64,000 bases of DNA from a virus. The stretch lies in the IMG/VR virus record IMGVR_UViG_3300029395_000163; one strand, given 5' to 3'. The position numbers and the translations under genes were made by a program. A model generated the notes under the pieces. It did not search any database and was not told the origin of the DNA. It saw only the letters and a program-made list of their open reading frames with translations. Shown here one piece after another: positions 26,610 to 35,628 of this stretch (within the stretch, counting starts at the first letter, position 1; every line of letters begins with the position of its first letter).

Positions 26610-27623
26610 ATGCAGGGAAGACTAGAGACGAAGTTAAAAACGGAAGCAAAAATTCGCAGCCAACTGGATGAAGCGCCGAAATACCTGCAAGATTATGCTT
26701 ATAACTTGTCGTCTTCAAAAGAACCAAGAACAGTTTTGGAATATATTAGAAAGATAAAATTGTTCTTAACATTCTTAAATGAAGACTACAATCAGATTGA
26801 TATTTCTAAAGTTACAGATTCAGATATCAGCCGGTATATCGCAAGCAGAGAAGTAAAAAAGGTAAAAGTGAAAAATAAAAGAACCGGAAAAGTAGAAGAA
26901 AAAATATCCGCTACTTCCGCTTCATACTTAAAGGGAACCCATACAGTGCTTATGGGTTTCTTTTCTTATCTGCAAGCGAAAGAATATATTAAGTCAAATC
27001 CAGTTCAAATGATTCAGCGAATCAGGAGGGAAGATACAATAAAAAGAAGGCGATTTAAAGAAGAAGACTTGAGAGAAATAATGAAGTCTGTAGATCGAAT
27101 CAATAAAGAAGGTAGCTATATCGGATATAGAGATAGAGCAATCATAATGTTGCTAATAAATACAGGAATGAGAGAAACTGCGCTGACAGAGATAAATGTA
27201 GGAGACATTAATTTTAACGACAACAAGTTAGTTATCATAGATAAGAGATATACAACTCATGAATATTATCTAAACCCAATGTTATCCAGCATATTAAAAG
27301 ATTATATCGAGAAGAGGGAAGAGTATCTAGTAGGAAGAGAAATAGATGCTCTTTTTGTTTCGCAGAAAAAGAACAGGATACATCCTAATTCTGTTGCGGA
27401 TTTAGTAAAAAAGTACACTCTTGATTCACTCGGCACACCGTTATCTCCTCATAAACTTAGAGCGGCGTTCTGCACTATACTTTACGATAAAACGAAAGAC
27501 ATAGAATTTGTTCGGGATGTTGTTGGACATAAAAGTGCATCTACGACAAGAAAATATATTGTTAAAGATGGAACTGAAAAAATGAAAGCATCAAATATGA
27601 TGGCAGATATATTCAAGCAATAG
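26610..27623 (+). CDS. int: Tyrosine recombinase / phage integrase (337 aa)
   Basis: C-terminal motif HKLRAAFCTILYDK....VVGHKSASTTRKYI (R..H..R..Y catalytic residues). GAGGAGG RBS. Confidence 0.8.
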   Translation: MQGRLETKLKTEAKIRSQLDEAPKYLQDYAYNLSSSKEPRTVLEYIRKIKLFLTFLNEDYNQIDISKVTDSDISRYIASREVKKVKVKNKRTGKVEEKISATSASYLKGTHTVLMGFFSYLQAKEYIKSNPVQMIQRIRREDTIKRRRFKEEDLREIMKSVDRINKEGSYIGYRDRAIIMLLINTGMRETALTEINVGDINFNDNKLVIIDKRYTTHEYYLNPMLSSILKDYIEKREEYLVGREIDALFVSQKKNRIHPNSVADLVKKYTLDSLGTPLSPHKLRAAFCTILYDKTKDIEFVRDVVGHKSASTTRKYIVKDGTEKMKASNMMADIFKQ

Positions 27624-27715: not shown

Positions 27716-28279
27716 ATGTTATATGTAATACAAAAAGGAAATCAATATATACGGTTGAGCGATACTGGAAAAGTAGATACCGTAGGATTAAAAAAAGCGA
27801 CAAAATTTACGCTGGATGAAGCAAGAAGAACAAAGTTAAAGGCTCCCGTAAAGACAAAAGGATTTGAAATACGCGAACAGCCTTTAAAAGATACTAAAGA
27901 GAAAAAGAAAAAAACTATACGAAAACAGTTCAGCGTGTCAGAGAGAAGTCAGGTTTATAGCAAGACAAATGGACATTGCGGAATTTGCGGCGAATTTGTT
28001 CCGTTCGATTCTTTTACGATAGACCATATTATTCCGATATCGAAAGGCGGAAGCAGCACAATAGATAATCTACAGTGTTCTTGCTTGGTCTGCAATCGAA
28101 TTAAACAAGATATTTTGCCGGAAGATTTGTTCGATAAGATTTCTGCAATAATTTCATATCAGCTTAAAATTGGCGGTAAAATCGAAGTAGACAGCCTTTT
28201 AAAAGATTGCATTAAAAAGAAAATGTCTCTAAAAATGTTTGGAATAAAAAAGAGGGGAAAACACAAGCATGACAAATAA
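27716..28279 (+). CDS. HNH endonuclease (187 aa)
   Basis: CGICG....DHIIPISKGGSSTIDNLQCSCLVCNRIK is an HNH His-Me finger. Confidence 0.75.
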   Translation: MLYVIQKGNQYIRLSDTGKVDTVGLKKATKFTLDEARRTKLKAPVKTKGFEIREQPLKDTKEKKKKTIRKQFSVSERSQVYSKTNGHCGICGEFVPFDSFTIDHIIPISKGGSSTIDNLQCSCLVCNRIKQDILPEDLFDKISAIISYQLKIGGKIEVDSLLKDCIKKKMSLKMFGIKKRGKHKHDK

Positions 28280-28460: not shown

Positions 28461-28508
28461 AATGGTAAAAGATACCACGGGAAACACGAACAAAAGTTCG
28501 GAAAATGC

Positions 28509-28538
28509 TTGACACTGTGCTGTAGTACATGGTATATT
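28509..28538 (+). promoter_or_regulatory. Strong sigma-70-type promoter (TTGACA-N18-TGgTATATT with extended -10)
   Basis: Consensus -35 plus extended -10, followed by about 400 nt of leader before the GTG at 28944. Confidence 0.5.
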
Positions 28539-28943
28539 ATGACAAGGAAAATAAAAAACCGCCCCTTTATAACGGTGTTGGAGCACCTTGGGGCGGAACG
28601 TAAAATGCTTTGTCCATAAAAGAACAAAGATTGTAAAGATATGTTGGAGCATATCCTTACGTTTCTTTATCTTACTATACAATTCTTTTAAGGTCAAATA
28701 AAATCTTTATTAAATATTTTCCAAAAAACGTAACTGAATAACAAAAGAAAGTCTCGGTGTAAAGATGTCTTTGTGCGGCGAACGCCTGTTTGCACCATAA
28801 AAACATTGAGAAATTACTTAGTTGACTTTCTAAAAACCGCATGGTTAAGCCATATTTCGGGGGTGAAATGCGTCCGTTATATGGAAACCTTGCCGGTAGA
28901 CTGTAGCACTTGAAAGTGTTAGTGTTCGAAAGAGAGGTTAGAA

Positions 28944-31202
28944 GTGAATACGGAAAAAAATGTCGAAGAGTATTATGCAAATAATGCTGCAAAAGTCAGA
29001 AAAATGGTTGATGATATCATTAAGCGGTACAGATTTAATATTACCGACAAAGATGATTTCTATTCAATCGCAAATGAAGTATTTGTAAAGATACTGGATA
29101 CTTACGACGGCAAAAGAGATTTTAAGGGATATCTATATTCTTGCTTAGAGAATCGAATCAAGCAGGAACAAACAAGGAGAAATGCTCTTAAAAACGGCGG
29201 AGATAAGCTCATATCGTCTTTAGATGATACTGAAAGTAATGAAGACATAAATCCTTATGAAGTTATTGAAGGAGCTATATCAGCAGAAGATGAATTTATG
29301 GAGAATTGCGGAGAATGGAGCAGTCCTGTAATTGCAGAATATTTTAGTAAGTTAAGTCCGATGCAGATGGAAATAGCCAAGCTCAAGTCAGAAGGATATT
29401 CGTTTGAAGAAATAGCGAAAAAACTTGGAATTACATTAAACAGATATTATGAATTATGTAATGATATGACATCAATAGAGAAGACAAGAGATTTAATCAG
29501 TTCAAAAAATAAAGCATTAAAAAAAGAATTTGTTATTAAAGGAGAACCATCTATGAATATTCCCAAAGCAGAAACCAGAACAACCACTACTAGTACAAGC
29601 GAAAAGACAAAAATGATTGCATTATCTGTAATATCTATATGTCTGCAATTAGATGCTCGTAGTATTTTGGATAATCACCCGCTTCAGAGAGCGTCTGGTC
29701 AATGGTCTAAAATCATGCAGAGCAATTTAATTTCAGATTTATTGCAAGGAAATGCAATTCCTCCGCTTTTGCTGGCAGAACAGTATATTAATGGGGTCGC
29801 CTATAAATGGCTTTTAGATGGTAAACAGCGACTTGTCGGAGCTATATATTCATATTTAAATGATGGGTTCAAAATCAGTAGAAATGTAGAGAGAAATATG
29901 ATTGAGTATCAAGCAAATGAACAAGATGAGAATGGTAACATTGTTTGCGACAGTTACGGAATCCCGAAGAAGATTAACTGCGAATTCGACATTAGAAATA
30001 AAAAGTTCTCTCAATTACCGAAAGAATTACAAGAGAGATTTAAAAATTACAACCTCCAGATAACTCTTAATCTAAACTGCACAAAGGAGCAGATTGAATA
30101 CGATATCAGAAGATACAATCAGTCTAAGCCGATGAGTGTTGCTCAGAAAGGAGTTACTTATCTTGGAGAAGATTTTACTAAAATCGTTAAGACTCTTTCA
30201 GCGAAACCGTTCTTTAAAGAAAAAGGTAATTATAGTCCATCAGAATCTTATAACGGCAAATTAGATAGGACAATTATTGAGTCTATTATGTCCATTAACT
30301 TTTTAGATAAATGGAATAAGAGTAATGACGTAAACTGTTCATATTTAAAAGAGAACGCAAAAGTGAAACAGTTTAACGTTTTAGAATCCATAATCGATAG
30401 ATTATACGATGTTGTTACTGACGAAGTAAATGACTTGTTTGATTCAAAGAATTCATTTGTCTGGTTTACTTTATTTGATCGGTTTACAAAGACTAAGATT
30501 GGTCGCTCGGAAACAGAAGATGAAAAGTTCGTAGAATTTTTGGCGGCATACAAAGAAGAACTACATAGCCGAAAAATTGACGGCATGACAACGGAAGACA
30601 TTGATTATAACGCTGGGACAAAAGGAAGAGTGGCGGTCAGAAAGAAACTCGAACATATTGAAGCACTCATGAATGAGTTTTTGGGAATTGAAGTTTCAGA
30701 AGGAGTCGAATCTTTCAATACTAATGACACAATCGATAGCTATATTTCGGAATTTTGCTCAACAAATCTTATGAACAATGCGGTCTCTGGAGATGTAAAT
30801 AAAGTAAGAGCCGCTGTCGGAAGTATGATGTTTGTAAATGGATTTAATGATTATTCAGATAAAGCTATTCAGGAGTATATCTCCGGCAATAACTATTCAG
30901 AGAATGATATTTCAGATATGGAATTGTATTCTTCTGTATTGAACGACTGGAGTTCAGATATTGACAAAAACTCAAGAATTTTCGACATGGAGAATATCCC
31001 AGTATTATTAAAAGTCATTTCTAAATCATATGAGAAGGAAATGGATGAAAACTTCTGTATTGAATGGTTTAAAGGAATCGTGGAAAACTACGGAACAAAC
31101 GTAAAATTTTCCGGCGTAAATACAGAAGATTATAATATGATGCTCAATAGTTTAAATAACTATGTGACATATAAAGAAGAGAAACTCGAAGATGCAGCAT
31201 AA
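28944..31202 (+). CDS. Fusion protein (752 aa): N-terminal ECF-like sigma-70 domain (regions 2 and 4) joined to a DUF262 / ParB-like (GmrS N-terminal type) domain and a long C-terminal region
   Basis: Region 2-like DDFYSIANEVFVKILDTYDGKRDFKGYLYSCLENRIKQEQTRR. Region 4 HTH LSPMQMEIAKLKSEGYSFEEIAKKLGITLNRYYEL. DUF262 signatures HPLQRASGQWS and, about 40 aa later, WLLDGKQRLVGAIY (cf. IP.YQR.Y.W ... IDGQQRLTT). GTG start with an AGAGAGG RBS. Confidence 0.6.
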   Translation: MNTEKNVEEYYANNAAKVRKMVDDIIKRYRFNITDKDDFYSIANEVFVKILDTYDGKRDFKGYLYSCLENRIKQEQTRRNALKNGGDKLISSLDDTESNEDINPYEVIEGAISAEDEFMENCGEWSSPVIAEYFSKLSPMQMEIAKLKSEGYSFEEIAKKLGITLNRYYELCNDMTSIEKTRDLISSKNKALKKEFVIKGEPSMNIPKAETRTTTTSTSEKTKMIALSVISICLQLDARSILDNHPLQRASGQWSKIMQSNLISDLLQGNAIPPLLLAEQYINGVAYKWLLDGKQRLVGAIYSYLNDGFKISRNVERNMIEYQANEQDENGNIVCDSYGIPKKINCEFDIRNKKFSQLPKELQERFKNYNLQITLNLNCTKEQIEYDIRRYNQSKPMSVAQKGVTYLGEDFTKIVKTLSAKPFFKEKGNYSPSESYNGKLDRTIIESIMSINFLDKWNKSNDVNCSYLKENAKVKQFNVLESIIDRLYDVVTDEVNDLFDSKNSFVWFTLFDRFTKTKIGRSETEDEKFVEFLAAYKEELHSRKIDGMTTEDIDYNAGTKGRVAVRKKLEHIEALMNEFLGIEVSEGVESFNTNDTIDSYISEFCSTNLMNNAVSGDVNKVRAAVGSMMFVNGFNDYSDKAIQEYISGNNYSENDISDMELYSSVLNDWSSDIDKNSRIFDMENIPVLLKVISKSYEKEMDENFCIEWFKGIVENYGTNVKFSGVNTEDYNMMLNSLNNYVTYKEEKLEDAA

Positions 31203-31211
31203 GGAGGGCTT

Positions 31212-31361
31212 ATGGCGAAGAAAATTGATTTGCAGCTCGGAGACAATGTAGTGATGATTGCTATGACTATTATCACAGATGACGGTAAAGACGCAGGAAC
31301 TTATTCCGTCGAACAGAGATTGTATACAACAGAGGATTTCGAGTCGGAGGATGAAACATGA
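31212..31361 (+). CDS. Small acidic protein (49 aa)
   Basis: TAAGGAGGG RBS followed directly by ATG. Not in the ORF track (under 60 aa). Confidence 0.4.
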   Translation: MAKKIDLQLGDNVVMIAMTIITDDGKDAGTYSVEQRLYTTEDFESEDET

Positions 31362-31412
31362 TATTCAAGGACTTGATAATCTGTTAAATATAAGAAGAGG
31401 AGGAAAGCAGTT

Positions 31413-31580
31413 TTGTTTGTGGTTTTTCTAATAGGGGTTTTTATTGCCGCCTTTATAGGTCTATTGCTAGTTTATATCGGCAACAAGGTTTTAAATGAGA
31501 TGAAGATGGATGATATGAACTCCGAAATGGAGATGAAAATTAAAAAAGAAATGACGAATTTTAAGGAGAAAAGCGAATGA
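31413..31580 (+). CDS. Small single-TM membrane protein (55 aa), TTG start, translationally coupled to the SPFH gene
   Basis: GAGGAGG RBS. Its stop overlaps the SPFH start (ATGA). Confidence 0.4.
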   Translation: MFVVFLIGVFIAAFIGLLLVYIGNKVLNEMKMDDMNSEMEMKIKKEMTNFKEKSE

Positions 31581-32440
31581 AAAAGATTATTGCACTTGTT
31601 TTAGTAGTAGTGTTTGCGATTTTTGGAGGAATTTTTGCGGTAACACACATAAAAGTTATTGATGCCGGGAAAGTGGGAGTTGTTTATTCTGCAAATGGAG
31701 GCGTTAAAGACGAGCTATATCGTCAGGGATGGCACTTTGTTCCTCCGATGCATAAAGTAAAAGAATTCACTGTTGGAAACGAGCAGTTAGTCCTTTCAAA
31801 AGATAAAAGAGAAGGATCTGAAGGAGATGATTCCTTTAAAGTTGCGACATCCGATGACGCAAGCATCGGATTAAGTTTCCAGATGAGCTATAGATTCATC
31901 GAAGAAAATGTTGCCGATACATATAAGAAATTTAAGGGTATGAGCGGAGAAGACATTGTAAATAATCGAGTAAAAACGGTTATCAAATCAAAAATCTCCG
32001 AAGTTACTACAAATTATAGCATGATGGATATTTATTCCGGAAACAGAAGCGAGATCAACCACAAAATCACAGAATATCTAAATAAAGATTTTAGCAGCAA
32101 GTACGGAATTGAAGTATTGGATGCTTCCATTATTGATGTCCATTTAGATAAAAAGTTAAAACAGGCGGTAGAGAACCGAGTGCAGGCGTTACAGAAAAAA
32201 CAGCAGGCACAGGTTGAACAGGAAACTGTAAAGGTAGAGAATGAAACCAAGTTATTGCAGGCAAAGAATGATGCTGAAATTAAGAAGACAAAAGCTGAAG
32301 CTGAAGCCGCATCTAATCAGACAATCGCAAAGAGTATCACAAAAGAATTAATCGAAATGAAACTAGCGGAAGCGAGACTTGAGCATGGTTGGATTACGAC
32401 TCAGGGAGCTGGAGCTGTGGTAACAAACGGAGGTAATTAA
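31577..32440 (+). CDS. SPFH / band-7 (flotillin/HflKC/prohibitin-like) membrane protein (287 aa)
   Basis: N-terminal TM, then VIDAGKVGVVYSANGGVKDELYRQGWHFVPPMHKVKEFTV..., typical of the SPFH domain, with a C-terminal coiled coil. Confidence 0.7.
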   Translation: MKKIIALVLVVVFAIFGGIFAVTHIKVIDAGKVGVVYSANGGVKDELYRQGWHFVPPMHKVKEFTVGNEQLVLSKDKREGSEGDDSFKVATSDDASIGLSFQMSYRFIEENVADTYKKFKGMSGEDIVNNRVKTVIKSKISEVTTNYSMMDIYSGNRSEINHKITEYLNKDFSSKYGIEVLDASIIDVHLDKKLKQAVENRVQALQKKQQAQVEQETVKVENETKLLQAKNDAEIKKTKAEAEAASNQTIAKSITKELIEMKLAEARLEHGWITTQGAGAVVTNGGN

Positions 32441-32443
32441 TTT

Positions 32444-32659
32444 ATGTGGTTATTTCTTTTGATATGCGAATTAGTATCTATAGCGATATGGTTCGTTATG
32501 TATATTGAAGATTTATTTTTCCAAATTATTCCCGGAAATAGGTCTAATGTAGAAGATAAGGTAATTGCCCTTTTATTTGTAGCCGTTTTCGCCGGATGGT
32601 TTCTGGTATGGTATTTCATATACCTTTTTATAAGAGCCATCAAAAAAATTACAGAATAA
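32444..32659 (+). CDS. Small two-TM membrane protein (71 aa), possible NfeD-like partner of the SPFH protein
   Basis: Two hydrophobic helices, tightly coupled to the SPFH gene. Confidence 0.45.
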   Translation: MWLFLLICELVSIAIWFVMYIEDLFFQIIPGNRSNVEDKVIALLFVAVFAGWFLVWYFIYLFIRAIKKITE

Positions 32660-32681
32660 GTTATTGCAGGAGGATTTTTTC

Positions 32682-33014
32682 ATGAGCAAACCAAATAAGA
32701 ACCGTAAGAAATACTACGAAACATACAAGCAGGAGAATCGCCTCTTAAAAAACAAAGAGAAGAAAAAAGAAAAGCATGAGAAAAGAATGGCGAAATTCGC
32801 AAAACGCCGAGAAGAAGGAAAGACTTATTCTTATAAGCCAAATCCATTTAAAAAGGACTCCGAGGAATACATTTTAGAGGAGAATAATAGAAGACGCAAA
32901 AATATCAGAGCTATTGACATTGGTAAATGGGATAGTGTTATGAGGAAGTTGCAGAATCGCAGAGATAAAGAGCTGGAATTAGCGAAAGCTCGAAAGGAAA
33001 GCAAAAGAAAATAA
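32682..33014 (+). CDS. Highly basic K/R/E-rich protein (110 aa)
   Basis: ORF-track ORF is 32664..33014. CAGGAGGA lies 7 nt upstream of the ATG at 32682. Confidence 0.5.
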   Translation: MSKPNKNRKKYYETYKQENRLLKNKEKKKEKHEKRMAKFAKRREEGKTYSYKPNPFKKDSEEYILEENNRRRKNIRAIDIGKWDSVMRKLQNRRDKELELAKARKESKRK

Positions 33015-33025
33015 ACCACTGAATT

Positions 33026-33050
33026 GCAGGGAGTTCATTTCCCTGCTTTT
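33026..33050 (+). terminator. Intrinsic terminator closing the sigma-DUF262 / SPFH transcription unit
   Basis: 7-bp perfect stem GCAGGGA/TCCCTGC, 7-nt loop, TTTT. Confidence 0.55.
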
Positions 33051-33076
33051 ATAAACAAAAAATAAAGGAGAAAATA

Positions 33077-33709
33077 GTGTCAGAAGAAAAAAATGTTTTT
33101 AAGATTTTGAATTCTATTGATGTGTCTGGAAAAGTAAAAGAGAAAAATAAGCTTTCATACCTTCCGTGGGCTTCCGCTTGGGCAGAAGTAAAAAAGCTGT
33201 ATCCGGATGCCTCATTTGAAATCAAGAAGCAGACAATGGAAAATGGCGTTGAAAGACCTTGGTTAGATGATGGGAAGACTGGCTGGGTAGAAGTTTCTGT
33301 TACGATTAGTGGTCAGACCATTACTGAAATGCTGGCGATTATGAACTTCAGCAACAAAGCTATTCCTGCCGATCAGATTACTGCGACAGATGCAAACAAA
33401 TCAATCAAAAGATGTCTTACAAAAGCGATTGCAATGCATGGATTGGGCTTATATGTGTACGAAGGAGAAGATATCCCAGAAGATACAGCAAGAACAATCG
33501 AATTAAAATCAGTCATCAAAGATATTGTTGCAAGAAAATGCTCAACAGAAAAAGGGAGAGCGAGAGTAGGAGAAATCTGTAAAGAAGCTGAAAAGAAAGC
33601 CTTCCCTATGATTTCAGAAGAAGACATCAGAGGGGATTATACAAAGATTGAAGATTTAGAGATTTTGCAGAATTTGAAAACTCAGCTTTTAGCATTAAGA
33701 ACAAAATAA
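33077..33709 (+). CDS. Putative single-strand annealing protein (Sak3/DUF1071-like, Rad52 superfamily), 210 aa
   Basis: KLSYLPWASAWAEVKKLYP.. N-terminal motif. It opens a recombination module (HD, Cas4-like exonuclease, SSB downstream). Confidence 0.45.
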   Translation: MSEEKNVFKILNSIDVSGKVKEKNKLSYLPWASAWAEVKKLYPDASFEIKKQTMENGVERPWLDDGKTGWVEVSVTISGQTITEMLAIMNFSNKAIPADQITATDANKSIKRCLTKAIAMHGLGLYVYEGEDIPEDTARTIELKSVIKDIVARKCSTEKGRARVGEICKEAEKKAFPMISEEDIRGDYTKIEDLEILQNLKTQLLALRTK

Positions 33710-33719
33710 GGAGATTCAT

Positions 33720-34355
33720 ATGTCTAACGAAAACGTATGTAGATTTGAAAAACTGCTACAAGGAGTGAAAAGAGAAGGAGTTGAAGAGCTTCTGAATTTT
33801 ATTAGAGGCTCTGACTTCTATACCGCTCCAGCCAGTACGAGATATCATCTGGCAGAAGAAGGCGGATTACTTAAGCATAGTCTTCATGTGTATGATTGCT
33901 TGATGAAGAAGAAAGAAAATCCTGTTTGGAAAGAGGCATTAAGCGACGTTTCAGACGATACTGTTATCCTAGTATCATTGCTTCATGATTTATGCAAGAC
34001 ATACTTTTATGGAGAAGAATTGAAAAACAGAAAAACATATGATGAAGAGAAGGTTAAGGCGGCGAACCCTAGAACAGTAAAAAGAGACGCTAACGGAGAA
34101 TTTATATGGGAAACCGTTCCTGCATATGTAGTAGATGATAAATACCCATTGGGGCATGGAGAAAAGAGCGTATTTTTTATAATGCAGTTTGTTAAGCTGA
34201 CGATGCTCGAAATCGCTGCGATTAAGCACCATATGGGGGCATATTGCGATTCTAGCCAATGGAATACTCTCGGGCAAGCGTATGAAAAATATCCTTTGGC
34301 ACTGGCACTTCACGAATCAGATCTTGAGGCGACATACTTACTAGAAACGGAATAA
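33720..34355 (+). CDS. HD-domain phosphohydrolase (211 aa)
   Basis: RYHLAEEGGLLKHSLHV plus LLHDLCK (the H..HD metal-binding motif). Confidence 0.6.
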   Translation: MSNENVCRFEKLLQGVKREGVEELLNFIRGSDFYTAPASTRYHLAEEGGLLKHSLHVYDCLMKKKENPVWKEALSDVSDDTVILVSLLHDLCKTYFYGEELKNRKTYDEEKVKAANPRTVKRDANGEFIWETVPAYVVDDKYPLGHGEKSVFFIMQFVKLTMLEIAAIKHHMGAYCDSSQWNTLGQAYEKYPLALALHESDLEATYLLETE

Positions 34356-34373
34356 GCGAAAGGAAGATAATAT

Positions 34374-35171
34374 TTGGCGGTTGATTCGCTAAAGAAACCT
34401 AGATACTCATTTAGCCGATTAGATTGCTTTGAAAAGTGCAAATACAGTTATTATTTAAAGTATGTACTTGGAGAAGACGGAGCGGATGAATATATAGCAG
34501 AAGGAAATTATTATGCCGAAGTTGGGTCTTTTATGCATGAGATTCTCGCAAAGATTTTTGAAGGCGAACTTTCTGCGGATGATGCTCCTAATTATTTTGT
34601 CGAGCATTACGATGAATTTGTATTTTATAAAGTCAAGAAGTCGATTATGGACAAGACCTATGATTTATGCTTGGATTATTTGGCTACAGAAGATTTTGGC
34701 TGGGCGGAAGGATACGAAGTGGTCGGCGTTGAGCTAAGAACAGAATTAGTAGTTCAAAAACACGACTTTATCGGATTCATTGATTTATTATTAAGAAACT
34801 TGAAAACTGGAGAATATTGGCTGATTGACCATAAGAGCGCGCCGTACCCGTTTAGAAAAGACGGGAAAGGGATTTTGGCTAAGTCTAAAAAGAGCTTTGA
34901 ATCATATAAAAGGCAAATGTATTTATATTGTCATGCAGTCAAAGAAATATACGGAGAATTCCCGCAAAAAATTACGTGGAATCACTTTAAAGAGAAGAAA
35001 CTTGCGACAATTCCATTTATGCAGGAAGAATATGAGGAAACGATGAAATGGTTTTTGGAGACTATAAAAAGAATAGAAAAAGAAAAATTCTTTGAGCCGA
35101 CAAAAGACTTCTTTCACTGTGCGTTTATCTGCGATTATAGAAATTGTTGCGAATATAAAAAATATGAATAA
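34374..35171 (+). CDS. PD-(D/E)xK exonuclease of the RecB/Cas4 type with Fe-S cluster cysteines (265 aa)
   Basis: N-terminal YSFSRLDCFEKCKYSYYLKY and C-terminal HCAFICDYRNCC give the Cas4-like Cys pattern. TTG start. Confidence 0.6.
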   Translation: MAVDSLKKPRYSFSRLDCFEKCKYSYYLKYVLGEDGADEYIAEGNYYAEVGSFMHEILAKIFEGELSADDAPNYFVEHYDEFVFYKVKKSIMDKTYDLCLDYLATEDFGWAEGYEVVGVELRTELVVQKHDFIGFIDLLLRNLKTGEYWLIDHKSAPYPFRKDGKGILAKSKKSFESYKRQMYLYCHAVKEIYGEFPQKITWNHFKEKKLATIPFMQEEYEETMKWFLETIKRIEKEKFFEPTKDFFHCAFICDYRNCCEYKKYE

Positions 35172-35185
35172 ATTGGAGGATACAT

Positions 35186-35599
35186 ATGAATCTTGTTGTA
35201 GAAATTGGAAGATTAACTAGAGACCCAGAAGTGAATAACGGAGCAGTTAGATTATCTATCGCTGTAACTAGAAGATTTAAAAACAAAGAAGGACAGTACG
35301 ATACTGATTTTATTAACTGTGTTTCATTTGCAAAAACAGGAGAATTTATCCAGAAGTATTTTCATAAAGGAGATAAGATTGCTATTACCGGAAGAATCCA
35401 GACAGGAAGCTATACAAACTCAGAAGGAAAGAAGGTATATACAACAGATGTGGTTGTAGATAATGCGGAATTCGTGGAAAGCAAAGGTGGTTCTGCACCT
35501 GACTCAACACCTTTAGGTCAGACAAAGAAAGAACCTACATCTAAGGATGATTTTATGCAGGTCCCGAGTGGAGACGATGACGAATTACCATTCAACTAA
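35186..35599 (+). CDS. ssb: Single-stranded DNA-binding protein
   Basis: OB-fold sequence with an acidic C-terminal tail ending DDDELPFN. Confidence 0.8.
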   Translation: MNLVVEIGRLTRDPEVNNGAVRLSIAVTRRFKNKEGQYDTDFINCVSFAKTGEFIQKYFHKGDKIAITGRIQTGSYTNSEGKKVYTTDVVVDNAEFVESKGGSAPDSTPLGQTKKEPTSKDDFMQVPSGDDDELPFN

Positions 35600-35628
35600 A
35601 AATTTGTTGAGGAGGTTAGGAGGGTGTA

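Follow-up and report, generated by a model that had tools for sequence, protein, structure and literature searches.

We analysed a six-gene cassette in a 64,000-nucleotide (nt) stretch of viral DNA, IMG/VR record IMGVR_UViG_3300029395_000163 (the whole stretch is called the window below). The cassette, at positions 28,509 to 33,050, encodes in order a fusion of a sigma factor to a ParB-DUF262 protein (sigma-DUF262), a 49-amino-acid (aa) acidic protein (acid49), a 55-aa transmembrane (TM) protein (tm55), an SPFH-domain membrane protein, a 71-aa protein (tm71) and a 110-aa highly basic protein (basic110). The initial annotation had read these genes as one transcription unit and as a self-contained accessory system that joins the sigma-DUF262 protein to a flotillin-like membrane module. 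Comparison with related loci indicates instead that the sigma-like and SPFH genes are independent modules, found side by side only in this phage lineage. We consider it probable that the interval is the part nearest the promoter of the long, co-directional early region of a ~125-kb phage of Lachnospiraceae-type Clostridia, made of juxtaposed independent modules and not of a dedicated system. It is best read as a mobile TM-SPFH pair and some small open reading frames (ORFs) that came to sit behind the sigma-ParB regulator of a wider clade, at the start of an SOS-type early operon.

The window consists of phage DNA with ~35% GC, a uniform GC skew and ORFs that are nearly all on the plus strand, and it differs from a 125-kb contig (IMGVR_UViG_3300045988_149622, locus L002 of our comparison) by 53 mismatches over 12.9 kb. 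Named relatives of the sigma-DUF262 and SPFH proteins come from Lachnospiraceae and other Clostridia. When GenBank phage DNA was searched with the region, the only match was to the SPFH gene, 70% identical in a 176-kb gut phage that carries no annotation. The two genes were then followed in two sets of loci. On the SPFH side, a scan of viral contigs gave 80 loci at 56-100% identity, which with MT835469 make 81 loci in 13 lineages; on the sigma side, three genomic contexts and 54 viral loci fall into 20 lineages at 70% identity. The SPFH loci were searched by tblastn with all cassette and flanking proteins as queries, and the ORFs neighbouring SPFH were grouped by all-against-all clustering.

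By tblastn, the sigma-DUF262, acidic, two-TM, Sak and integrase genes lie near SPFH only in L002-L005. These four contigs represent one phage lineage, syntenic over the whole 12.9 kb from the integrase to the SSB gene, and the six-gene set is confined to it. The sigma gene is missing within 6 kb in 76 of the 80 viral SPFH loci, and the 53 sigma-DUF262 loci of lineages other than that of the window are all without an SPFH gene within 6-8 kb. The only recurrent neighbour that SPFH keeps at a fixed position is a small TM ORF at position -1 (81 loci of 13 lineages compared). The recurrent neighbours of sigma-DUF262 are a PemK-like toxin (14/20 lineages), a 218-aa protein (13/20) and integrases, and SPFH is among its neighbours only in the lineage of the window. 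Both genes occur together, equally oriented but 26-39 kb apart, in seven contigs: 3300045988_120770, with sigma at ~50.0-52.2 kb and SPFH at ~81.5-82.4 kb, and 3300045988_120677, 3300007138_000004, 3300029841_000001, 3300045988_124120, 3300045988_117585 and 3300045988_105603. In L140, a 40-kb temperate phage, and in L141, a Lachnospiraceae genome, the genes before the TM-SPFH pair lie on the opposite strand, so that the pair must have its own promoter there. Adjacency in one lineage, with the genes far apart elsewhere, argues against a dedicated sigma-SPFH system. The initial annotation had itself named co-conservation of the six genes as a check on its proposal, and scattered or non-co-occurring genes as a pattern that would speak against it; this second pattern is the one found.

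The outline of the transcript fares better. The promoter at 28509 is the only plus-strand site of at least 11/12 in the window and is unchanged in three relatives that are ~85% identical (L082, L083 and L085). All six genes are co-directional, in the order and of the sizes first described, with intergene gaps of 9, 51, -4, 3 and 22 nt in cassette order, and the TGA of tm55 overlaps the ATG of SPFH as ATGA. The closing hairpin is the sole convincing plus-strand terminator in the region, and its stem and T-tract are preserved in L003-L005, where the loop differs. Within the cassette no convincing internal plus-strand terminator was found; there is a weak terminator-like site at 32591. A strong conserved promoter, co-directional genes, small gaps, one conserved terminator and an arrangement kept in four contigs make co-transcription of the six genes plausible in this phage. 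Two parts of the proposed unit need correction. Coupling is close between the genes and not throughout, since a 400-nt structured leader with a convergent minus-strand promoter stands before the first gene. In addition, the Sak gene begins 30 nt past the terminator and no promoter-like site was detected at 32660-33076, which makes either read-through or a promoter of another type likely for the recombination and replication genes. Recombination genes without a promoter of their own suggest that the terminator is leaky, and with probable read-through past 33046 promoter and terminator would not bracket a closed unit.

The head of the cassette has the traits of a conserved regulatory region. The putative operator CGAACAAAAGTTCG is the sole perfect CGAAC-N4-GTTCG match in the 64-kb window, and we infer that LexA binds at 28487-28500. 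CGAAC-N4-GTTCG is the Bacillus Cheo-box consensus, and in the clostridial host here the box is a putative LexA site. For the architecture of the leader we compared 32 loci bearing the hairpin element described below. In 32/32 loci a LexA-like box with at most two mismatches lies 57-122 nt 5' of the hairpin (such boxes occur in 1.5% of random 120-nt windows), and a plus-strand promoter scoring 10.5-12.5 stands 33-61 nt 5' of the hairpin in 31/32, the best in L109 scoring 8.5.

Between the promoter and the GTG start of sigma-DUF262, the 400-nt leader is ~94% identical to that of relatives whose flanking proteins are only 67-86% identical, and as a whole it folds better than shuffled sequences (z = -4.7). 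The core 14-mer of hairpin 1 recurs 5' of sigma-DUF262 in many divergent loci, where the outer stems are non-homologous yet base-paired (they covary) and the inner hairpin follows the consensus GGTG-YTGGMR-CACC. Past this short core, blastn-short and nhmmer detected no sequence similarity between the leader and distant loci. What distant sigma-DUF262 loci have in common is an architecture, namely LexA-type boxes, a near-consensus promoter, an A-tract, a covarying outer stem and an inner hairpin. A covariance model of the hairpin built from one sub-clade proved too sequence-specific, finding further members of that sub-clade strongly but other lineages at only E 0.1-0.4, so covariation was judged by direct stem scans instead.

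Read on the minus strand, hairpin 1 is a GC-rich hairpin followed by UUUUUUAUUUU, the layout of an intrinsic terminator, and the scan also flagged a terminator-like site there. TGTTGGAGCA is found exactly twice in the window, each time within a hairpin loop, once in hairpin 1 and once in hairpin 2; a counterpart of the second hairpin, whose loop reads TTGGCG, is present in L088 and L092. All 32 loci have a promoter on the minus strand 36-144 nt past the hairpin, its spacer being 17 nt long (16 in L120). A score of 9.5 or more is reached in 100% of the loci but in 18% of background windows; for 10.5 or more the figures are 66% and 3.5%. The antisense RNA predicted from it folds at -39.2 kcal/mol (z = -5.8; z = -5.6 for the L088 counterpart), and two of its loops have one and the same six-nucleotide sequence, CUCCAA as read on the minus strand. 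Promoters placed face to face and an antisense transcript of this kind would mean that LexA gates the sense promoter and that a cis-antisense RNA works against it.

In its 3' half (28700-28943), the leader contains long stretches that do not vary among relatives, and a structure is predicted for this part; the second LexA-like box, which lies here, is kept as CGAAC-N4-GTTTG in relatives, and no family match was found for this half. A search of Rfam with the leader returned nothing at gathering thresholds, the nearest being a chance-level STnc310 at E 0.13. A small protein encoded in the leader was considered and rejected, as in relatives (L082) 2-nt indels or the loss of a start codon disrupt the candidate ORFs of both strands. 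There are no tRNA genes in the window. Relatives carry some upstream of sigma-DUF262: a tRNA-Gln in L088 (7856-7929) and, in the gap before the gene in L089 (6168-6659), a tRNA with anticodon CUA (called Pyl, suppressor-like), a tRNA-Lys and a tRNA-Glu.

A LexA-type operator at a key phage promoter recalls LexA-controlled prophage switches, of which Bacillus thuringiensis phage GIL01 is an example. Here, however, the controlled gene is a sigma-ParB fusion, a predicted layer of antisense RNA is added, the host belongs to the Clostridia, and the box is read from sequence alone. We picture the head as a first module, conserved across a clade of large gut phages and made up of the LexA-type operator, the near-consensus sigma-A promoter, the structured leader and the sigma-ParB/DUF262 gene. 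The first ~118 nt of its leader would face the convergent promoter and so be matched by a cis-antisense RNA ending at a hairpin and U-tract. DNA damage would remove LexA, the sense transcript would then outrun or titrate the antisense RNA, and the sigma-ParB protein would act on phage DNA or RNA polymerase to bring on the next stage. A bolder version, which we offer tentatively and hold to be less likely than not, is that this head serves as the master switch to the lytic cycle, triggered by the SOS response, in an as yet undescribed clade of 110-180 kb Lachnospiraceae phages, in which one protein couples promoter recognition to ParB-like nucleoside triphosphate-dependent DNA clamping or sensing and the SPFH pair is a passenger.

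The fusion protein itself supports the sigma and DUF262 domain calls first made for it. TIGR02937 matches residues 17-167 with 61.2 bits against a cut-off of 42.9 (E 9.2e-17), and PHROG sigma families match the sigma part at ~1e-8. The DUF262 part is matched by NsnA of PADLOC (E 2.4e-10, residues 215-579) and by phrog_2598 (E 1.6e-11); PF03235 (DUF262, GmrSD_N) gives 23.9 bits, below the Pfam cut-off of 33.2. In the DGKQR motif (DGxQR), D292, G293 and Q295 are invariant among 30 homologues, and K294 and R296 nearly so. The fusion has 280 database matches, many at 35-44% identity over ~99% of its length, and its codon changes, counted here and below between the window and L004 (~85% identical), are skewed to the third position. 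An AlphaFold2 (AF2) model (pLDDT 78.7) places sigma2-like helices at 3-85, a disordered linker, sigma4-like helices at 128-173, a second linker, an alpha/beta DUF262 domain at ~220-400 and then ~350 all-helical residues. The top Foldseek matches of this multi-domain model are BrxU (GmrSD family, E 6e-3), ECF sigmas and ParB/Noc, all with weak E-values; ECF sigmas in initiation complexes have fold probabilities of 0.87-0.99, yet E > 0.1. No cognate promoter motif was identified for the sigma part.

This organisation resembles NsnA-type ParB-DUF262 sensors with an N-terminal DNA-binding module added. Menshen consists of NsnA followed immediately downstream by the ABC-ATPase NsnB and the effector NsnC, and NsnA proteins can bear extra N-terminal DNA-binding domains, of which only region-1.1-like ones are listed (PMC12065111). 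Neither an NsnB nor an NsnC gene lies downstream of sigma-DUF262, the other five cassette proteins have no PADLOC match, and a DUF1524 (HNH-type) nuclease domain has no Pfam match in the fusion at E <= 0.1, its C-terminal 350 residues being all-helical in the model. The fusion would therefore be neither a GmrSD enzyme nor a Menshen system. With NsnA, GmrSD/BrxU and SspE it appears to share a central DUF262 domain with DGxQR and a helical domain after it; unlike them, it has an N-terminal sigma2+sigma4 module and lacks DUF1524, NsnB and NsnC, and unlike the ParB-DUF262 sensors of defence islands it is phage-encoded and stands behind a LexA-type promoter. In several relatives, a PemK-like toxin gene with a small downstream partner lies 5' of sigma-DUF262 (L086 7012-7670, L088 6853-7508, L089 5227-5873); at this position the lineage of the window has the HNH endonuclease and 63-aa ORF instead. 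The neighbourhood of PemK toxin and integrase could mark a maintenance module of phage-plasmid-like elements.

The SPFH gene and its small partner appear to form a second, mobile module. The SPFH assignment of the initial annotation holds (Band_7 PF01145, 103 bits versus a cut-off of 23.6, E 2.6e-29; phrog_200, E 3.6e-53), and the gene shows 63 synonymous versus 7 non-synonymous changes. Its description as flotillin-like does not, for the modelled structure is prohibitin/HflKC-like. The AF2 model (pLDDT 77) consists of a helix (2-23), an SPFH domain of strands and helices (25-189) and long coiled-coil helices (192-253, 256-270). Foldseek against the PDB is led by the human prohibitin complex and the cages of HflK/C, erlin and stomatin at full length (E 6e-16 to 1e-11), with query-normalised TM-scores of 0.50-0.67 for the full-length prohibitin and HflK/C matches, and flotillin complexes rank 29th and below with a target coverage of 0.31-0.35. 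No flotillin-specific Pfam family was found in the protein at E <= 0.1. The HflK and HflC equivalogs, TIGR01933 (33.1 bits versus 159.4) and TIGR01932 (20.5 versus 134.4), match weakly and stay far below their cut-offs, and the interval has this one SPFH gene and no second one to make a K/C-type pair.

A 47-95-aa ORF with a strongly hydrophobic 19-residue stretch ends -17 to +31 nt from the SPFH start in 80/81 loci. These small proteins have a common layout and often a common sequence, MWVVFLL...GNKV... and then a charged tail; members related in sequence (clusters 22 and 223) occur in 10/13 lineages. In most loci, the TM-SPFH pair is surrounded by genes of its own strand that belong to the early, replication or nucleotide-metabolism groups. 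Cultured phages have SPFH relatives as well, at 24-30% identity in 410 records (Staphylococcus, Bacillus, Enterococcus, Streptococcus), labelled prohibitin, HflC or lipoprotein. Enterococcus phage vB_EfaH_EF1TV encodes a 49-aa protein (L373 3259-3408) that has an N-terminal TM helix and a charged tail and whose reading frame opens at the stop codon of the SPFH gene; this member of the Herelleviridae thus has a small-TM partner in reversed gene order relative to the window. In Streptococcus phage phi3396 (L372 3091-4675), the prohibitin gene phb1 overlaps the genes on both sides, an HTH_3 gene upstream and, downstream, one annotated as transcriptional activator; a XerC-like recombinase, an HNH endonuclease and terminase come next, a set that recalls the integrase, HNH, regulator and SPFH genes of the window.

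Three known arrangements are close to this pair. Between lysK and tgl, Kayvirus phages encode MbpV, a holin-like protein with a single TM helix, together with the SPFH protein MbpS; for the two the authors only suggest help in secretion (PMC7150955). As in the window, a small protein with N-terminal TM and charged C-terminus accompanies an SPFH protein in a phage of Firmicutes (PMC7150955); the Kayvirus block, however, belongs to the lysis region (endolysin lysK/tgl), whereas the window pair lies in an early region, between regulator and recombination genes, and MbpV has 102 aa against the 55 of tm55, which overlaps the SPFH start, with low sequence identity between the pairs. The HflK/C-FtsH and prohibitin cages (PDB 7vhq, 7wi3, 9cz2, 8rrh) likewise run from an N-terminal anchor through the SPFH domain and a long coiled-coil helix to a short C-terminal segment; in place of an HflK/C or PHB1/2 pair there is here a single SPFH gene with a 55-aa TM partner, and a connection with FtsH would be by analogy only. 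In SPFH-NfeD operons (QmcA-YbbJ, PDB 8z5g), SPFH is translationally coupled to a small membrane-protein gene as well, but a search for NfeD (PF01957) at E <= 0.1 matched neither tm55 nor tm71, and both, judged by length, are too short for its OB-fold domain. We see the second module as a mobile unit of two membrane-protein genes, in which a ~50-aa single-pass protein is translationally coupled to an SPFH protein of the prohibitin/HflKC kind. By analogy with solved SPFH cages, the latter may form an oligomeric cage on the membrane that has the small partner inside or beside it. The unit would most likely act on a process of the host membrane, for instance FtsH-type proteolysis, secretion or lysis timing.

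The remaining genes of the cassette look like lineage-specific filler. acid49 is present only in L002-L005 (11 synonymous versus 6 non-synonymous changes) and has no family match in Pfam or PHROG. tm71, which had been suggested as an NfeD-like partner, has no Pfam match to NfeD or any other family, and with 2 synonymous versus 16 non-synonymous changes it shows no purifying selection; the other five ORFs do. In L003 (6963-8066), a TnpB gene (OrfB_IS605 and Cas12f1-like TNB) stands directly after SPFH in its place. An NfeD-like partner was rejected for both tm55 and tm71, and tm71 appears to be a doubtful or dispensable gene. basic110 shows 34 synonymous versus 18 non-synonymous changes and has partial relatives ~5 kb from SPFH, non-adjacent, in L013, L016 and L081. 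In this lineage, regulatory head, membrane pair and filler are probably carried on one transcript with a likely leaky terminator. The coordinates of all features are collected in Table 1.

Table 1. Features of the cassette and its surroundings, in positions of the window
Feature	Position	Strand	Remarks
Tyrosine integrase	26610-27623		5' of cassette
HNH endonuclease	27716-28279		5' of cassette, with a 63-aa ORF also upstream
LexA-type (Cheo-like) operator, putative	28487-28500		CGAACAAAAGTTCG; 8 nt 5' of the -35 hexamer; from sequence
Sigma-A type promoter, predicted	28509-28538	+	TTGACA-18-TGgTATATT; 11/12, extended -10
Predicted cis-antisense RNA	28545-28662	-	~118 nt; complementary to start of plus-strand leader; three hairpins and U-tract
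A-tract and hairpin 1	28548-28596		Outer stem CCGCCCC/GGGGCGG (28559-28565 / 28590-28596)
Inner hairpin of hairpin 1	28574-28587		GGTG-TTGGAG-CACC
Hairpin 2	28633-28660		TTGGAG loop at 28644-28649, same as in hairpin 1
Convergent promoter, predicted	28669-28697	-	TTGACC-17-TAAGAT; 9/12
Leader 3' half	28700-28943	+	Second LexA-like box CGAACGCCTGTTTG at 28779-28792
Sigma-70 (ECF-like sigma2+sigma4) / ParB-DUF262 / helical C-terminal fusion	28944-31202	+	752 aa
acid49	31212-31361	+	49-aa acidic ORF; lineage-specific
tm55	31413-31580	+	55 aa; N-terminal single TM helix, charged tail; coupled partner of SPFH
SPFH / prohibitin-HflKC-like membrane protein	31577-32440	+	287 aa
tm71	32444-32659	+	71-aa ORF, two hydrophobic segments
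basic110	32682-33014	+	110 aa, highly basic; AGGAGG 8 nt before ATG
Intrinsic terminator-like hairpin	33026-33046	+	GCAGGGAG-loop-TTCCCTGC, then TTTTAT
Sak-like annealing protein, HD phosphohydrolase, PD-(D/E)XK exonuclease, SSB			3' of cassette

The hairpin core was also considered as an element specific to sigma-DUF262, and pattern scans of viral and bacterial collections ruled this out. The pattern ATAAAAA-N(6-34)-GGTGTTGGCGCACC occurs in at least 120 viral contigs (L144-L263), mostly 18-40-kb phages and mostly without sigma-DUF262, as well as in 108 stretches of bacterial genomes (L264-L371). In small phages, the core is usually found just 5' of tyrosine or serine integrase genes, in most cases with a minus-strand promoter beyond it and no LexA box. 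In Bacilli, it is the 3' (terminator) stem-loop of the Rfam BsrG RNA, a type I toxin mRNA. The element appears to belong to a broader class of small RNA (sRNA)/terminator modules near integrase genes. It is possibly an sRNA gene, a relic of a type I toxin-antitoxin system or part of an attachment site; an attP core was considered because both kinds of integrase gene adjoin it in small phages. The core can also be written GGTGTTGG(C/A)GCACC after the A-tract, and its minus-strand loops contain NCCA, as does the 3' end of tRNA. In L109 (~4789) and L120 (~5770) the inner hairpin is inverted (GGTG-CGCCAA-CACC), with A-tract and outer stem in unchanged orientation; such a flip fits an inversion between the stem arms and argues that either strand or orientation can serve.

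These findings bear on how the start of the cassette is read. It is possible, if unlikely, that the promoter at 28509 and the convergent promoter form a small sense/antisense RNA module related to type I toxin-antitoxin loci such as bsrG/SR4, that the plus-strand RNA stops at hairpin 2, and that the sigma gene is expressed from another start, non-sigma-A or regulated by read-through. The occurrence of the core beside integrases and in the BsrG terminator of Bacilli speaks for this, as do the U-rich run after hairpin 2 and relatives in which the element stands 1.1-2.8 kb from the sigma gene. bsrG/SR4 is itself a convergent sense/antisense pair with overlapping RNAs, and the core GGUG-C(N)CCA(A)-CACC fits the BsrG 3' stem-loop (PMC3834814). 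bsrG and SR4, however, overlap 3'-3', whereas the overlap in the window is 5'-5' with promoters face to face, and the plus-strand RNA appears to run on into protein genes. Moreover, BsrG (RF01412) has no match in 28480-28960 at E <= 1, no toxin or other small ORF is conserved, the U-rich tail after the second hairpin is not kept in L088, and 28700-28943 holds no other sigma-A promoter. In 31/32 loci the strong plus-strand promoter points at plus-strand genes that include or lead to the sigma gene. A different alternative concerns the TM-SPFH pair, which might be a moron with a weak promoter of its own, possibly active in the lysogen, and serve as a superinfection-exclusion or lysis-timing device. 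The autonomy of the pair in L140 and L141 is in keeping with this. So is a promoter-like site (ATGAAA-18-GATAAT, 31351-31380) in the 51-nt gap before tm55, a gap identical in all relatives. The small partner has a holin-like layout like that of MbpV in the Kayvirus lysis region (PMC7150955), and some family members are labelled lipoprotein. The internal site is nevertheless weak (9/12) and has no extended -10, most loci lie outside a lysogeny module and not beside an endolysin, and the literature searched gave no experimental exclusion phenotype for phage SPFH genes. We therefore hold a moron to be a rather improbable account of the pair.

That the six genes make up a dedicated accessory system which is associated with the membrane and serves defence, superinfection exclusion or host takeover, with sigma-DUF262 working together with SPFH and the small proteins, we regard as very improbable. 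Its appeal lies in the tight co-directional packing between a strong promoter and a conserved terminator, kept in four contigs, and in the likeness of the DUF262 part to the NsnA sensor of Menshen (PMC12065111). Against this stand the restriction of adjacency to one syntenic lineage, the absence of the partner from 76/80 SPFH and 53/53 other sigma loci, the seven genomes with the genes 26-39 kb apart, and the TnpB insertion that splits the set in L003. Nor are acid49, tm71 and basic110 conserved partners. A known defence system was also looked for and set aside: PADLOC matched the DUF262 part alone, with no companion NsnB or NsnC, and literature searches combining SPFH with defence terms gave nothing relevant.

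Several points nonetheless weigh against juxtaposed independent modules as we describe them. The segment from acid49 to SPFH has 88-96% DNA identity among relatives versus 75-85% in the flanks, which would also fit a locally co-adapted unit. The prohibitin gene of phi3396 stands beside an activator, so some recurrent proximity of SPFH and regulator genes is possible. The compared loci share kinship and are not phylogenetically independent. The weak site at 31351-31380 could drive TM-SPFH separately. Hairpin 2 is followed by the U-rich GUUUCUUUAUCUU, and the plus-strand transcript would have to read through it to reach the sigma gene; like this read-through, promoter, antisense RNA and terminator are predicted from the DNA. 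Since the hairpin core is not specific to sigma-DUF262, any part it plays in controlling the sigma gene is conjectural, and the cage and FtsH roles of the membrane pair are analogies.

Beyond the cassette, the HD-phosphohydrolase gene (33720-34355) is 0% aligned in L003-L005 (window 33677-34400) and appears to be a lineage-specific insertion between the Sak and exonuclease genes. The region is also mosaic in its identity to relatives: the SSB gene (35177-35600) is 95-100% identical to L004 and the SPFH gene (31577-32330) 96-99% to L003, with surroundings at 75-85%. Such local patches suggest recent recombination among related phages.

Adjacency within one promoter-terminator bracket had been read as a system, and comparative genomics points to a lineage-specific juxtaposition. 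The pair of a small TM protein and a prohibitin-like SPFH protein is very widespread in gut Clostridia phages, with distant SPFH relatives in cultured Staphylococcus, Bacillus and Enterococcus phages, and belongs to a known, functionally unexplored kind whose SPFH cages are now structurally understood. The sigma-factor/ParB-DUF262 fusion, with its LexA-type promoter and conserved predicted antisense RNA, is a candidate induction switch for large gut phages.

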